Counted from the first letter of the stretch, positions 46,574-56,060 are shown. The stretch: 64,000 bases of DNA from a bacterium ADurb.Bin243 (GCA_002069765.1 MWBZ01000005.1:42214-106213), one strand, 5' to 3'. Notes: generated by a model from the sequence alone, not told the origin. Numbers and translations are program-made.

Positions 46574-47341
46574 TTACTGCGAAAGTCCCGTGCTGGTGCC
46601 CATATTGCTTCCTATTCTGATGCCGTTGGCCGTACTCGATGAATTAGGAAGGCTTCCCAGGTTTACCGTTATATTTCCGAAGTTAGTCATAATCATCGTA
46701 ACCGCCGGATTTATAGTGCTGATTTTCCAGGTGGGCAGCCAATATTTTTGCATATCATCGACCAGCTGGTTTTCGATATAGGTGGAATAAATATTTATCA
46801 TAACATCGAGCCGGGCGTTGGTAGAGTGAAGTATCTTCGTTTTTAAATAACGCGGTTTCTGTCCCGGAGCGCGCGTATTGGATAGGTGGTTGCCGGCCGC
46901 GTCGAGTATTTTTATTTCAAATTCGCTCAATTTATTAGCCCCGGTGAGTTTTCGCGTCCTCAGGCCGCTGAGCCCGTCGCTTTCGATGACCTGGAACTTT
47001 TTGATAAGACAGCCGTTTTCAAAGCAGTAAAGGACTTTTGAATATATTATGATTCCGTTTTCCGTGACGCCGTTGACTATATTCAAACTTAATGTTTTTG
47101 CGGCGGCGTCATATACCGCGAACGTATCGGGGTCGTTTTCAAATTCTATAAGCGTTCTGAGATCGCTTCTAAGGTTATAGATTATAAAAGCCATTTCCTG
47201 TATGGCTTCGAGATTTTTAGTTTCCAGCTCGTGATGTTTGTGGCTTCTGATTAAAAAAGTGTAAATCGCCGCCATTATGGATGTGGCGATAAGCGTTACC
47301 ACTATTATTTCCACCACGGTAAACCCGGATTTATTTTTCAT
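46574..47341 (-). CDS. Pseudopilin (GspJ/PilW-like) with a class III signal peptide, module A.
   Basis: MKNKSGFTVVEIIVVTLIATSIMAAIY has the prepilin G/F cleavage site and Glu at +5. Confidence 0.7.
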   Translation of the reverse strand: MKNKSGFTVVEIIVVTLIATSIMAAIYTFLIRSHKHHELETKNLEAIQEMAFIIYNLRSDLRTLIEFENDPDTFAVYDAAAKTLSLNIVNGVTENGIIIYSKVLYCFENGCLIKKFQVIESDGLSGLRTRKLTGANKLSEFEIKILDAAGNHLSNTRAPGQKPRYLKTKILHSTNARLDVMINIYSTYIENQLVDDMQKYWLPTWKISTINPAVTMIMTNFGNITVNLGSLPNSSSTANGIRIGSNMGTSTGLSQ

Positions 47342-47343
47342 AA

Positions 47344-52876: not shown

Positions 52877-53374
52877 TTATTCAGCCCCGCTTATTAAAGT
52901 GCCGACGTTAAAATATTTAATCGCTCCGTTGTGGGTGAACTTAATTTTGACTATAAGTTTTTTGATCTTTTTATACTTTTCGAGCTTGTCCATGTCGCTC
53001 TGGCAGAGGCCGGTTATATTGCCCGGATTAATGCTGTGAGTGCTTATTTCTATATATCTTTCGTAGCCGGGTTTCAATGTCGAAAGCCGCCCGGCGAGTT
53101 TTACGAAAAATTGATTGCCGCCGAGCGTGCTTAGCTCCGATAGCGAAACGGTTTCGGGGATCTCGTCGAATTTGTGCGCGATGACCGAATCTATGAGCTC
53201 GTTGGCGTAGGTCGTCACCAGAACGTTGTCTATGGTGTATGAAATATCCGCGGTCGTACTGGAAAATAAGGATAAAATCGGAAAAAGCCCGAGCGAGAGC
53301 ACCACCAGAGCTACCATTATTTCAAGGAATGTAAAGCCGCCGGCCGTCTTAGCGGCGCTCGATTTATTCGCCAT
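52877..53374 (-). CDS. Type IV pilin-like / minor pseudopilin, module B.
   Basis: GGFTFLEIMVALVVLSLGL is a canonical prepilin N-terminus. Confidence 0.75.
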   Translation of the reverse strand: MANKSSAAKTAGGFTFLEIMVALVVLSLGLFPILSLFSSTTADISYTIDNVLVTTYANELIDSVIAHKFDEIPETVSLSELSTLGGNQFFVKLAGRLSTLKPGYERYIEISTHSINPGNITGLCQSDMDKLEKYKKIKKLIVKIKFTHNGAIKYFNVGTLISGAE

Positions 53375-56060
53375 ATACCCTCCAGTAGCTTTGCCTTGAA
53401 GAAATAGTGTATTTATAATGCTTAACGTAGTTGTCTATATCGCACGGGTCCAGCGCCGGATCGTAAGTGACGGTATTTCTGCGGAACCCTGTTTTATTGC
53501 CGGAAACTCCCAATATGGGATGGTTAGTTCCGGGCGGCAGGGATGAAACCTTGAAAAGGCTTCCGGGCCGGTTAAGATCGAAATGGATTTTAGCCATGGT
53601 CATATTTCCGAAAACCTGGAAATAATCTACGGCTTTTTTTATGGTGCCGTTGAGCGAGTTGAGGGAAGCTTCTATTTCGCTTCCGGCGATCGTTATATCG
53701 CCGTCTACGGATATCAGCGTGAACGTATTCGCGTTGGAGCGGGCATGGGCGCTTTTGAATATGCAGGGTATTTTCACGCCTTTTTTAAAGATCAGCATGG
53801 TGTTTTCGTCGAAATCGAGCCGGTCCGCCGTCGCGCCAAAAGTGAGATCGCAGTCGGCGCCGTCGTCGATATAAAATATGCCGCTTTCCTTGAGCGAAAT
53901 AGAGCCCGCGTTCTGCGTAATCAGCTTGCTTTTGAATTCGTCGAACGTGTTGAATATGAAGCTCGTTTTATGCCTGATATCGTATTTATTCATATCTATT
54001 TGCGACTGCACCGTAAGCGGATTCTGGTAATCCGGCGTGGAAAGCGTTACCGCTCCCAGGGCCCCTTTAAAAATGCCGTCCGGAAAAATGACTCCGCTTT
54101 CGTCGAACGAGCCCGCGCCGTTTTTTTTGTACTGCGATATTTTAAGCTTGTTGGCGTATATGCAGTTGCCGAACGCGCCGCCCTGGACGTAAAAAAACAG
54201 TTCATCGGCCTGCGCGTCGGGATAAGAGGAAATTATCTTTATTTTATTCTGCTTAAGGCCGTATTTGGCGCCCGGCTCCACCGCACCGCCGGCTGGAGTG
54301 GAGTTAGCCGCTATCCAATCATAGCATTTGTTATAGGGCTCCATCAATATTTTACACATGAAAAACTTATAATTTTTAAGATGATCGGCCGTTACGCATT
54401 TAAAAACGTCATTTTTAATGCTATAGGCGGTTTTTGAAAAATCCTGCGCGCCTGGAAACGGATTTCCCGCGCCGTCTTTGGTATCGTCCACCGTCCCCCA
54501 GGCCGAACTTAGCGCCACCGCAGGGTTGCTGCCGGCGGTTCCGTTGTCGTCGATATTGAAATACGGCAGGAACCCTATATTAGGATGCGCCCCGCCGCAG
54601 GCTTCGTAGGGTAATTTATGCATGCCGTTTGGGAGCATATTGGTAAATTTGGGAGAAGTATTGGGATGGACGGTGTTTTGCGTTATCTGGCCTACGAACG
54701 CGAAAGTGCGCGCCACCTTGCCCAAAATAAGGGTCGGCGAACGCCTGTCGAGATAATTTAACGGCTTCGACGGCTCGGAAAAAGATTTGGCCTGCATGTC
54801 GCCGGATAATTGCAGCAGCGAAGCGTTTTCTGAAACTCCGGGATTCAGGTCGTAAAAATTGCCGACTATTGGCCGCGCTACCGGGTGTTTTAGAAGCCAG
54901 TAAATTCCCATATGCGTGATCCTTAAAATATAATCGTTTATGGTTCCGGGTTTTACCGCATCGCTGAAGGAACTGTTAAATGGATAATTGCCCCTGAGCG
55001 CACCGAATGCCAGCGCGCACAGGTCCGACTCCAGATGCAGAAAGCCGTTGCCGAAAAATCTGTAATTGATGTTCTGCGGATAAGGCGTTAAAAATTCAGG
55101 ATTAGCCTTTCCTGGAGCGATGTTGAGGTTGTAGTACTGGTCCGGCTGCTGGCAGCCGAGATATACCCAGCCGCGGTCGGTTATGGAAGGGCGGTAAGAT
55201 ATGCCGCTGCCCGAAGCCGGCGCAGGGGTTACGGTTTCGTCGAGCGGAAGGAATTCTCTTATCATCGCGTGCGTTCTATAATAAGCGTTTCCGGTTCCGG
55301 CCGTGATCTCTTTTACGTCGTCGGGATGGTGGATGAATATAAGCGGAACTCTGAGCGGATTCGCCAGATGGCTGACGATGCCCTGGCCGCCGTAGTCTTC
55401 GCCCGTTGTAGTAAGCGGCCTCATTATCAGCTGGTTTTCCGAAGCCGCGTCGCGGTCACGCACGAAGAGAGTGAATTTTGACAGGACCGGCGCCAGCGTG
55501 TTGGCGACTTTTATTTCATAGCGGCAGTAAAAAGTGCGGCTTACCGTTTTATAACTTACCTTTGCCGTTATTACGAGCGCTCCGAAGCGTTCGAAAGGGT
55601 CGGAAGGTATGTAGCAGCTGGCGGCGAAATCGTTCACCGCCGGCGGCTCGTTGAAATAATTCTGGAATCCTTCGTATTTAAGGGAAATTGTGTCGAGCGC
55701 GCCGCCGAGCTCCCTTATAAACTGGAAACATTGGAGCTCGCTTTCGCTGAGATTGATAATGGCGCTGTTGACTGAGCTATCGATAGTTGGAAGCATTACG
55801 AAACGATCGAGCGGGTTGTTTTTGTCGAGGTTCTTATAATTGACGGCTTTGGCGTTATACCAGCCGGTCGCTTCCAGGGCGGCGGCCTGCGCCATTTTTT
55901 CGGCGGCCGAAGTGTATTGCAGGCGCGCCACGATGTTTCTTTCGAATTGCATATATTTATGGACGGAAAAACCTATTATCGAAAGAATGGCTATTATTAC
56001 AAGAGCCATCGGAAGAACTATTCCGGCGTTTATAATTTTAGACTCATATTTTTTTATCAT
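53364..56060 (-). CDS. Giant (898-aa) PilX/GspK-like protein, module B.
   Basis: VLPMALVIIAILSIIGFSVHKYM...AAEKMAQAAALEA. C-terminus VTYDPALDPCD...HYKY...SSRQSYWRVY is shared with the module A giant. Confidence 0.55.
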   Translation of the reverse strand: MIKKYESKIINAGIVLPMALVIIAILSIIGFSVHKYMQFERNIVARLQYTSAAEKMAQAAALEATGWYNAKAVNYKNLDKNNPLDRFVMLPTIDSSVNSAIINLSESELQCFQFIRELGGALDTISLKYEGFQNYFNEPPAVNDFAASCYIPSDPFERFGALVITAKVSYKTVSRTFYCRYEIKVANTLAPVLSKFTLFVRDRDAASENQLIMRPLTTTGEDYGGQGIVSHLANPLRVPLIFIHHPDDVKEITAGTGNAYYRTHAMIREFLPLDETVTPAPASGSGISYRPSITDRGWVYLGCQQPDQYYNLNIAPGKANPEFLTPYPQNINYRFFGNGFLHLESDLCALAFGALRGNYPFNSSFSDAVKPGTINDYILRITHMGIYWLLKHPVARPIVGNFYDLNPGVSENASLLQLSGDMQAKSFSEPSKPLNYLDRRSPTLILGKVARTFAFVGQITQNTVHPNTSPKFTNMLPNGMHKLPYEACGGAHPNIGFLPYFNIDDNGTAGSNPAVALSSAWGTVDDTKDGAGNPFPGAQDFSKTAYSIKNDVFKCVTADHLKNYKFFMCKILMEPYNKCYDWIAANSTPAGGAVEPGAKYGLKQNKIKIISSYPDAQADELFFYVQGGAFGNCIYANKLKISQYKKNGAGSFDESGVIFPDGIFKGALGAVTLSTPDYQNPLTVQSQIDMNKYDIRHKTSFIFNTFDEFKSKLITQNAGSISLKESGIFYIDDGADCDLTFGATADRLDFDENTMLIFKKGVKIPCIFKSAHARSNANTFTLISVDGDITIAGSEIEASLNSLNGTIKKAVDYFQVFGNMTMAKIHFDLNRPGSLFKVSSLPPGTNHPILGVSGNKTGFRRNTVTYDPALDPCDIDNYVKHYKYTISSRQSYWRVYGE

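Follow-up and report, generated by a model that had tools for sequence, protein, structure and literature searches.

The region between positions 46574 and 56060 of the window (by which we mean the whole 64-kb stretch of DNA analyzed) probably carries genes for two sets, paralogous to each other, of three minor (pseudo)pilins of a type IV filament; in each set a giant protein would serve as the terminal tip subunit. Six open reading frames, all on the minus strand, make up two modules, A and B, with the same gene order: a giant protein of ~900 aa, then a prepilin of ~170 aa, then one of ~255 aa. Genes for an ECF sigma factor and a 231-aa FecR-domain protein sit between module B and module A, and the locus is flanked in the window by genes for a GT4 glycosyltransferase, a DegT aminotransferase and a hexapeptide acyltransferase. 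The features are listed below, with a slash at the predicted leader boundary of each small prepilin.

56107..56166, minus strand: long hairpin upstream of module B, within a 163-nt spacer (MFE -26.6 kcal/mol, z = -3.55)
53364..56060, minus strand: predicted giant tip-type minor pilin, copy B (898 aa; ORF call)
52877..53374, minus strand: small prepilin, copy B (165 aa; AG/GFTFLE; GGFTFLEIM; PilV/GspI-sized)
52115..52876, minus strand: larger prepilin, copy B (253 aa; KA/FTVVE; AFTVVEV; GspJ/PilW-sized)
52018..52047, minus strand: predicted promoter of sigma-70 type (TTTACA-18-TG-TATAAT), directly in front of the ECF sigma gene
51364..52008, minus strand: ECF sigma factor (214 aa; profile matches)
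50672..51367, minus strand: exported FecR-domain protein (231 aa; signal peptide, without an anti-sigma domain)
47893..50631, minus strand: predicted giant tip-type minor pilin, copy A (912 aa)
47344..47862, minus strand: small prepilin, copy A (172 aa; YGA/FSFVE; GAFSFVEIM)
46574..47341, minus strand: larger prepilin, copy A (255 aa; SG/FTVVE; GFTVVEI)
45298..46461, minus strand: putative anti-sigma factor (387 aa; zinc motif and FecR domain)
43481..43509, no strand assigned: bidirectional terminator-like hairpin (12-bp stem, 8 G-C pairs)

Two diverged copies of a three-gene module

The start of the copy-B small prepilin gene overlaps the stop of giant B by 11 nt; the 231-aa FecR gene shares its first 4 nt with the end of the sigma gene and itself ends 40 nt upstream of giant A. 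Between the two modules the giants are 58% identical (over 893 aa; E = 0), the ~170-aa prepilins 46% and the ~255-aa prepilins 54%, a similarity that, judged from the sequences, is far beyond chance and, together with the six ORFs, bears out the duplicated three-gene module proposed in a first-pass annotation of this DNA. The duplication had also been called old, and several observations agree: the likeness is at the protein level, with DNA identity between copies of 64-72% in a sensitive blastn search and no match by megablast; third codon positions are 46% identical between copies; and two further genomes of the Wallbacteria lineage (L006 and L007) have both copies arranged alike, orthologues being 79-93% identical across the three genomes that keep both copies in order. 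In the family tree giant B belongs to the B clade, and L003 has one module only at the syntenic site. The giants of A and B have diverged evenly over their length, at 37-80% identity per 30-aa block, and no hypervariable surface stands out in this block scan, a point against reading A and B as alternative adhesins, for which one might expect such a surface.

All four small proteins carry the prepilin peptidase site previously read in them, with G or A at -1, F at +1 and a Glu5 that is invariant in 10 orthologues of the ~170-aa family and 11 of the ~255-aa family. The Pfam N_methyl model (cut-off 21.2 bits) scores above its cut-off on the ~170-aa proteins (copy A 23.7, copy B 22.2 bits) and below it on the ~255-aa proteins (copy A 19.5, copy B 18.4 bits). 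Other matches involve the N-terminal part only and fall below the curated cut-offs: to PilV TIGR02523 (9.9e-7) for the copy-A small prepilin, to PilV TIGR02523 (3e-5) and GspI (1.4e-3) for its copy-B counterpart, and, weakly, to ComGE, ComGF, HpsB and GspJ for the copy-B larger prepilin, the E-values for the ~255-aa proteins being 2.6e-6 for ComGE and 0.077 for GspJ. No window protein matches the T2SSI or T2SSJ models, and in PDB profile searches with the small prepilins the match was confined to the helix. The labels GspI and GspJ, drawn from size and weak N-terminal profile matches, are thus unproven. Neither module contains a fourth, GspH/FimU-like adaptor pilin.

Giant B is 99.9% identical to P0006, a protein of 'Candidatus Wallbacteria bacterium', and the sequence family of the giant seems to occur only in Wallbacteria, Riflebacteria and uncultured, unnamed bacteria; that of the larger (~255-aa) prepilin comprises only 9 clusters among 5.8 billion proteins. 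The order of giant, ~165-aa prepilin and 250-475-aa prepilin is found again in nine separate loci (L001, L002, L003, L006 twice, L007, L012, L015 and L017), and related genomes carry 2-4 copies. As the first-pass annotation had stated, genes for the filament machinery are absent from the window: no secretin, ATPase, platform protein, prepilin peptidase, major pilin or further prepilin was detected in 64 kb. Likewise, no ATPase, platform protein, secretin, peptidase or major pilin was found within 10 kb of full-length (~850-960 aa) homologues in the fetched loci.

Fold of the giant subunit and its precedents

Both window giants, like all family members inspected, have a basic class-III-like leader, G or A, a hydrophobic helix and no Glu5; residue +5 is M, L, V or I in the two giants and the inspected relatives. 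In giant B, after a 13-aa leader ending in G and the hydrophobic helix come a pilin domain, a large head rich in beta structure and the conserved C-terminus; the C-terminal motif that had been quoted as shared by the paralogs is indeed present in the giants and nearly invariant across the family. The predicted elements of giant A are as follows.

Residues 1-24: leader (KNVKG/M)
Residues 26-84: alpha1 helix
Residues 131-198: pilin sheet
Following ~450 aa: mixed alpha/beta
Residues ~650-880: beta-solenoid
Residues 896-911: terminal strands

The structure predicted for the giant from a 61-sequence alignment (pLDDT 93.2, pTM 0.89) recovers a PilX/GspK-like pilin fold, in which a long N-terminal helix is packed on an antiparallel beta-sheet and which resembles GspK and XcpX; in the model this pilin domain is combined with a triangular beta-solenoid of the ice-binding-protein type. 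The order of elements, with the sheet at 131-198, a large insert and the terminal strands at 896-911, is compatible with a topology in which the solenoid would interrupt the pilin sheet between its penultimate and last strands. The sequence trail from the family to known tip subunits appears weak. The window giants have no Pfam or NCBIfam match of any kind (E <= 1), the T2SSK, PilX_N (PF14341), NCBIfam GspK (NF037980), N_methyl and PilY1/PilC profiles included, and profiles built from 21 and 61 family members found no pilin in the PDB at E <= 10, not even ComZ. Among distant relatives, PilX_N is matched by 1 of 46 (1.2e-4) and NCBIfam T2SS_GspK by 2 of 46 (2.1e-3). Because the giants have a leader and helix without Glu5, like the terminal subunits GspK and PilX, we keep the earlier reading of a K-like tip subunit, which, given the modeled fold, holds at the fold level although not at that of the PilX_N, T2SSK and GspK profiles.

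The architecture itself has precedents, in that it is shared by ComZ and by cyanobacterial PilX/HpsA. ComZ of Thermus thermophilus is a GspK-like pilin with an ice-binding-protein-like solenoid (PDB 6QVI); it binds DNA as well as a GspI-like partner, and has been argued to sit at the tip (PMC6561018). With ComZ, which together with PilA2 represents the tip pilins of the competence pilus, the giant has the combination of pilin and solenoid in common, but the Wallbacteria giant shows no detectable sequence similarity to it, places about 450 extra residues between pilin sheet and solenoid, and is accompanied by two partner prepilins in fixed order and by linked ECF sigma/FecR genes. ComZ is roughly 550 aa long, making the Wallbacteria giant (912 aa) about 350 residues longer.

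In cyanobacteria, all PilX homologues share the pilin-plus-solenoid architecture, and there are two sets per genome, priming different filaments; an expanded PilX subfamily is homologous to HpsA and has expanded solenoids and extra domains without assigned function, the solenoid being proposed by the authors as a tip plug (preprint 10.64898/2026.02.12.705559). The hpsA-D genes encode a large membrane protein and pseudopilins, lie beside glycosyltransferase genes and need an alternative sigma factor for expression; the locus name puts the large protein first and the pseudopilins after, as in the Wallbacteria modules (PMC6495340). What the cyanobacterial proteins and the giants have in common, compared by description, is a pilin fold bearing a bulky ice-binding-protein-like beta-solenoid. 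However, the lineages differ (Wallbacteria/Riflebacteria here), no sequence-level link was found, and the Wallbacteria sigma factor is of the ECF type, its gene sharing the operon with those of FecR-type anti-sigma proteins. The surface system suggested as undescribed therefore has precedents, its solenoid tip architecture being already known from ComZ and cyanobacterial PilX/HpsA; the ~850-aa extension ascribed to the giants corresponds in the model to an ice-binding-protein-type beta-solenoid plus extra domains, as in those proteins.

Type II secretion genes run in the order I-J-K, whereas the order of the Wallbacteria modules is K-I-J. In contrast to GspK-GspI-GspJ (PDB 3CI0) and XcpX-V-W, the Wallbacteria genes lie outside any gsp operon, and the T2SSK, T2SSI, T2SSJ and GspK models are unmatched by window proteins; the insert of GspK is alpha-helical rather than a beta-solenoid (PMC6561018). 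Relative to the tip sets of Myxococcus xanthus and Pseudomonas aeruginosa, there are three pilins, not four or five, and no separate PilY1-like protein, the bulky head being fused to the terminal pilin. M. xanthus reportedly has several paralogous minor-pilin/PilY1 sets per genome, away from the core machine, and the present genomes appear to resemble it in both respects. The P. aeruginosa FimU-PilVWXE/PilY1 tip set is reported to feed back on a dedicated envelope regulator, FimS-AlgR (PMC5979040); the regulator linked to the Wallbacteria set is an ECF sigma/FecR anti-sigma pair, not a two-component system.

Sigma factor and FecR genes linked to the modules

The ECF sigma factor contains regions 2 and 4 only (Sigma70_r2 3.6e-15; Sigma70_r4_2 3.1e-12; TIGR02937 sigma70-ECF 81.8 bits, cut-off 42.9), and the 231-aa protein matches Pfam FecR (6.9e-11, 42.9 bits). 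The translation of the 387-aa protein shows the zinc motif HxxxCxxC in the N-terminal part, as HIKTCADC, a hydrophobic segment that would span the membrane, and a FecR domain on the periplasmic side (Pfam FecR 4.4e-5, 24.3 bits, cut-off 24); this protein is a putative zinc-binding anti-sigma factor, with orthologues at the same position in L003 and L006 and at the end of the locus in L008. ECF sigma and/or FecR genes adjoin modules in the window and in L001-L003, L005-L008, L012, L014, L015 and L017; FecR-domain genes flank modules in L001, L002, L003, L005, L006, L007, L008, L014 and L017, and in L001 one lies between the giant and the small prepilins. As far as our literature searches went, the regular occurrence of ECF sigma and FecR genes inside minor-pilin operons is undescribed, and it makes a connection between filament tips and envelope signaling open to testing.

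The sigma and FecR genes head the ancestral module-A operon, and module B lies upstream of the sigma gene. This arrangement, together with the single copy present there in L003, speaks against the first-pass picture of the sigma factor as a selector set between two equal copies. The promoter predicted for the sigma gene is the best match in 43-58.5 kb (11/12, with an extended -10); four orthologous loci share TGATATAAT without change, and L006 and L007 also keep the -35 hexamer. The minus-strand transcription unit that starts at this promoter probably ends at the hairpin at 43481..43509. A search for a shared ECF-type promoter motif found none, so that selection of a module by the sigma factor stays hypothetical. 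We also note that the spacer in L006 equivalent to that upstream of module B contains a long hairpin too, with different arm sequences (z = -4.65).

The apparent co-transcription of set A with the ECF sigma factor, the FecR protein and the zinc anti-sigma suggests a regulatory tie to an envelope signal. It is conceivable, but distinctly unlikely, that the pilus-tip set and the ECF sigma/FecR proteins form one signaling device, in which the periplasmic FecR domains would sense engagement or retraction of the giant tip, or a build-up of unassembled subunits in the membrane, and pass the signal on to the ECF sigma by way of the zinc-binding anti-sigma. Such a device would be a pilus-based counterpart of TonB-dependent cell-surface signaling and could switch between tip sets.

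Proposed tip assembly and competing readings

In the arrangement we favor, each set would consist of a terminal subunit, with a GspK-like pilin domain lacking Glu5 and a ~700-residue head, and two Glu5-bearing prepilins. The N-terminal helices would place all three proteins in the inner membrane, where their leaders would be removed by a prepilin peptidase presumed to be encoded elsewhere in the genome. The three helices would then bundle into a cap in which the giant, since it lacks Glu5, could occupy only the very tip, and on this cap, acting as primer, a type IV pilus or type II secretion-like machine, likewise assumed to be encoded elsewhere, would polymerize a major pilin or pseudopilin. 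The bulky head may act as a tip plug or adhesin, and sets A and B, with the further sets of related genomes, may be alternative tips for the same machine. The pilin-plus-beta-solenoid tip architecture is extended to the little-known, uncultured Wallbacteria and Riflebacteria, supporting the notion that fusion of a bulky head to the terminal pilin is a widespread substitute for PilY1-type tip proteins. What is new is a family unrecognized by Pfam and NCBIfam, the ~450 extra residues in the tip subunit and the steady linkage to ECF sigma, zinc-binding anti-sigma and FecR genes; the family alignment and high-confidence model could seed a new annotation profile for genes that are now all 'hypothetical protein'.

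Unlikely, in our judgment, is a role for the sets as caps not of an adhesive surface pilus but of a pseudopilus like that of type II secretion or of a piston for polysaccharide export, in which the giant would contact the secretin or push cargo, for instance exopolysaccharide, as has been suggested for cyanobacterial hpsA-D. The resemblance of the pilin domain to GspK and XcpX is consistent with such a piston, as are the T2SS_GspK matches of the 2 of 46 distant relatives and the weak matches of the small pilins to HpsB and HpsC; hpsA-D, moreover, needs an alternative sigma factor and adjoins glycosyltransferase genes (PMC6495340), and the glycosyltransferase, aminotransferase and acyltransferase genes flank the window locus. 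These sugar genes, however, are not kept beside modules in distant loci, secretin and Gsp core genes are absent nearby, and the ~700-residue head, much larger than that of GspK, would be hard to fit into a periplasmic pseudopilus.

The tight, conserved ECF sigma/FecR linkage, including the L001 FecR gene between giant and small prepilins, the lack of filament machinery near any full-length (~850-960 aa) homologue and the even conservation of the whole giant would also suit three proteins that are not filament subunits but a membrane-anchored complex of the periplasm or envelope, feeding sensory input into the ECF sigma/FecR pathway and using the pilin-like N-termini only as anchors. We consider this very unlikely: Glu5 invariant in both small proteins and missing from the giant is a pattern peculiar to the ordered assembly of filaments, the giant retains the pilin fold and ComZ-like architecture, and minor pilin sets away from machinery genes are common, as in M. 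xanthus. That one copy is a decaying or redundant duplicate without separate function, for which the single module at the syntenic site in L003 might speak, seems extremely improbable, given that all six ORFs are intact and that three genomes keep both copies in order, with orthologues 79-93% identical; the excess of identity at second over third codon positions between the copies (77% versus 46%) points to purifying selection on both.

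Locus layout and age of the duplication

The minus strand between positions 46574 and 56060 carries eight tightly packed ORFs: two paralogous three-gene modules, A and B, each encoding a K-like protein of about 900 residues (the giants), a ~170-aa prepilin and a ~255-aa prepilin, with an ECF sigma factor and a FecR-domain protein encoded between them. The first-pass annotation had described duplicated three-gene modules at this place, and it was right in all particulars (ORFs, order and A/B identities).

Features of the pilin locus
56224-57948, minus: 574-aa secreted protein, upstream of module B (220-1971 in L003 and 2614-4344 in L006, homologous loci in other genomes)
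56107-56166, minus: long hairpin (z = -3.55), in the spacer that separates module B from the 574-aa gene
56060..53364, minus: giant B, 898 aa
53374..52877, minus: ~170-aa prepilin B, 165 aa, with an 11-nt overlap with the giant B stop
52876..52115, minus: ~255-aa prepilin B, 253 aa
52008..51364, minus: ECF sigma factor, between modules B and A
51367..50672, minus: FecR-domain protein with signal peptide, with a 4-nt overlap with the sigma ORF
50631..47893, minus: giant A, 912 aa, 40 nt beyond the FecR-domain ORF
47862..47344, minus: ~170-aa prepilin A, 172 aa
47341..46574, minus: ~255-aa prepilin A, 255 aa
46461..45298, minus: putative anti-sigma factor, 387 aa, downstream of module A
43562-45262, minus: 566-aa secreted protein, second gene downstream of module A, after the anti-sigma gene
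43481-43509, strand not applicable: strong bidirectional terminator-like hairpin

Between the two modules, protein identity is 58% for the giants, 46% for the ~170-aa prepilins and 54% for the ~255-aa prepilins, and DNA identity is 64-72% by sensitive blastn, with no match by megablast; by codon position, identity is 77% at second and 46% at third positions. These identities and the codon-position pattern argue that the duplication is old and that both copies are under purifying selection. In a neighbour-joining tree the giants fall into separate A and B clades, and the tandem arrangement of the window recurs in Wallbacteria GWC2_49_35 (L006) and JPNA_metabat.86 (L007); from the clade split, the duplication is therefore older than these species, in keeping with the age that the first-pass annotation had assigned to it. 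A hypervariable region was sought between copies A and B, and none was found.

In the relative L003 the syntenic site contains just one module, in the order 583-aa protein, sigma, FecR, giant, 164 aa, 256 aa, anti-sigma, GT4, flgI-flgH-flgA. Its gene order points to sigma-FecR-giant-prepilin-prepilin-anti-sigma as the ancestral unit, with module B lying upstream of that unit.

Several neighbouring genes were also considered. The 574-aa protein, alanine-rich and helical-looking, ends in a tail rich in Q, G and P and matches no Pfam model. Its gene is syntenic with the locus in L003 and L006, which are close relatives, and missing from distant loci, and for that reason we did not count it in the system. 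The gene for the 566-aa protein is probably co-transcribed with module A and is missing from the corresponding site in L003. Its product is weakly thioredoxin-like at the N-terminus, continues through a long low-complexity region rich in N, D, G and P, and has a metalloprotease-like motif, HEMGH, towards the C-terminus. Two long antisense ORFs (53583-54437, plus strand, 284 aa, inside giant B; 45353-45967, plus strand, 204 aa, inside the anti-sigma gene) were taken as non-coding, and their translations resemble those of typical opposite-strand shadow ORFs. Sugar-related genes flank the locus (GT4 glycosyltransferase, 42356-43471; DegT aminotransferase, 58179-59282; hexapeptide acyltransferase, 59510-60256). 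The window also encodes flgA, flgH (L-ring) and flgI (P-ring) at 39197-42311 on the plus strand, and the host is therefore a flagellated diderm.

Prepilin features and the modelled fold of the giants

In a window-wide ORF scan, the prepilin motif was confined to the four small proteins; no further prepilin-type ORF (major pilin or GspH-like adaptor) was detected, and neither module has a fourth, GspH/FimU-like pilin. The residue at -1 is G or A and that at +1 mostly F, and Glu5 does not vary across 10 and 11 orthologues of the two small families; the Pfam N_methyl profile scores the ~170-aa pair above its cut-off and the ~255-aa pair slightly below. The labels GspI-like and GspJ-like for the ~170-aa and ~255-aa prepilins are unproven, being based on size, fixed gene order and weak profile matches limited to the N-terminal region (PilV, 1e-6, and GspI, 1.4e-3, for the former; ComGE, ComGF, HpsB/C and GspJ for the latter). 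The leader of the giants is basic and terminates in G, or in A in one clade; Glu does not occur at +5 of the hydrophobic helix that comes after it. Lack of Glu5 characterises terminal subunits such as GspK and PilX (preprint 10.64898/2026.02.12.705559).

Searches of the PDB with sequence profiles of the giant family and both small families returned N-terminal helix matches or none, and no sequence similarity between the giants and ComZ, the Thermus competence-pilus tip pilin, was detectable. A first AlphaFold model of the giant, for which 21 close relatives were used, was of low quality in its central part (pLDDT 58.7), and its sole Foldseek match in the PDB was a weak one to ComZ (E 0.077). 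The model was improved by distant relatives from a profile search of 1.84 billion proteins (61 sequences in all), reaching a pLDDT of 93.2 and a pTM of 0.89. It consists of a long helix (26-84), a four-stranded sheet (131-198), about 450 residues of mixed alpha/beta structure, a beta-rich region (~650-880) and two conserved terminal strands. The figures listed for this structure are 9.3 for the S. sanguinis minor pilin PilA, 9.1 for GspK, 7.0 for TTHA1222, and 6.9 for both N. meningitidis PilX and XcpX. The K-like tip-pilin identity proposed in the first-pass annotation thus holds at the level of the modelled fold and not in family scans, where neither window giant matched Pfam or NCBIfam; among 46 distant relatives, one matched PilX_N and two weakly matched NCBIfam T2SS_GspK. 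A PilY1-like identity was rejected in view of the pilin N-terminus and the lack of a family-profile match.

A probable filament cap and its alternatives

ComZ is described as a pilin of GspK-like fold into which an ice-binding-protein-like solenoid is inserted ahead of the last strand; its binding partner is a neighbouring GspI-like subunit, and the pilus tip is the one position that it can occupy (PMC6561018). According to a 2026 preprint, all cyanobacterial PilX homologues share this pilin-plus-solenoid architecture and HpsA is a homologue of one expanded subfamily; its authors suggest that the solenoid takes the place of PilY1 as tip plug (preprint 10.64898/2026.02.12.705559). At fold level the giants thus belong with the ComZ/PilX/HpsA-type tip pilins, although their sequences show no detectable similarity to ComZ. 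The suggestion that the locus encodes an undescribed surface system does not stand, since these tip pilins are a precedent; the modules are a new version of such a set, in poorly known candidate lineages.

We consider it probable that the three proteins of each set cap a type IV filament with the giant at the tip, the paralogous sets being alternative tips. Prepilin peptidase would process all three proteins, which would then assemble as a cap topped by the Glu5-less giant and prime a filament made by machinery encoded elsewhere; the bulky head of the giant would serve as plug or adhesin. For comparison with the alternative tips that the two modules would supply, M. xanthus reportedly has three sets. 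Cyanobacteria have two, like the window (preprint 10.64898/2026.02.12.705559). Beyond genes, motifs, fold and linkage, all of this mechanism is what we infer. What chiefly tells against it is that assembly machinery is seen neither in the window nor near full-length (~850-960 aa) homologues; for the window, a gene search bore out the earlier statement that pilus and secretion machinery genes are not visible there.

The same proteins might instead cap a secretion or polysaccharide-export pseudopilus like that of hpsA-D, the locus containing HpsA (PMC6495340), a reading that we regard as unlikely. It is very unlikely that they form a non-filament envelope sensor complex, and that one module is a redundant duplicate is scarcely credible.

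Family distribution and regulatory linkage

What is notable in the window set is its size, its unannotated sequence family and its conserved coupling to an ECF sigma/FecR module. The giant family is very small, with 25 clusters among 5.8 billion proteins and nine loci in species-representative genomes (5 of 185,579 genomes, with one to three detected loci apiece; window-type loci have two modules each). Giant B shares 99.9% identity with a protein from the MAG of a 'Candidatus Wallbacteria bacterium', and the 255-aa prepilin A is identical to a 'bacterium ADurb.Bin243' protein entry. A profile search with the giant family retrieved 159 proteins at E <= 1e-3 from 1.84 billion representatives, most of them 600-800 aa long and alike in the initial ~210 residues and a portion of the C-terminus. 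Among the few that are named are proteins of Riflebacteria (Ca. Ozemobacter), and all are annotated as hypothetical.

ECF sigma and/or FecR-domain genes adjoin the modules in nearly all informative loci.

Regulatory genes at homologous loci in other genomes
L001: FecR gene between giant and prepilins
L002, L005, L014: adjoining FecR gene in each
L008, L012: adjoining sigma gene
L015: sigma, 340-aa protein, then giant-prepilin-prepilin
L017 (Riflebacteria): two modules, sigma and FecR

In the window, the 387-aa protein combines an HxxxCxxC zinc motif with a hydrophobic segment and a FecR domain, and we take it for a putative anti-sigma factor. Immediately ahead of the ECF sigma gene stands TTTACA-18-TGATATAAT, the best promoter of sigma-70 type across 15 kb. 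Four orthologous loci share TGATATAAT without change, and L006 and L007 retain the -35 hexamer. This promoter, together with short gaps and overlaps between genes, suggests one transcript from the sigma gene through module A to the anti-sigma gene. When the sequences preceding nine giant genes were searched for an ECF-type promoter in common, be it AAC...CGT or some other bipartite motif, the outcome was A/T-rich noise only. The spacer hairpin at 56107-56166, which lacks a clear T-run after it and an Rfam match, may function in termination, attenuation or transcript stability; the orthologous L006 spacer (about 4400-4445) also forms a long hairpin (z = -4.65), differing in arm sequences and sharing the centre GTCAGNCAAT. 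An Rfam search of the whole window found no known RNA family.

The Riflebacteria locus L017 has its two pilin-type modules within 10 kb (369-3606, 749 + 141 + 189 aa; 10001-13832, 852 + 165 + 259 aa). The ECF sigma factor and FecR protein are encoded in the interval separating the two, and the gene immediately preceding the second giant encodes a CHASE2-SpoIIE phosphatase. CHASE2 proteins occur elsewhere as a cyclase near the L015 module and, in the window, as a CHASE2-GGDEF protein at 8527-10812, ~36 kb from the locus. In Ca. Ozemobacter sibiricus (L018, 8563-13056), a 683-aa distant relative lies amid five small ORFs (158, 146 and 158 aa ahead; 145 and 194 aa behind), and upstream of them is another cluster, in which a 564-aa ORF is accompanied by small ORFs, one with an N_methyl motif; these clusters may be fuller minor-pilin sets.
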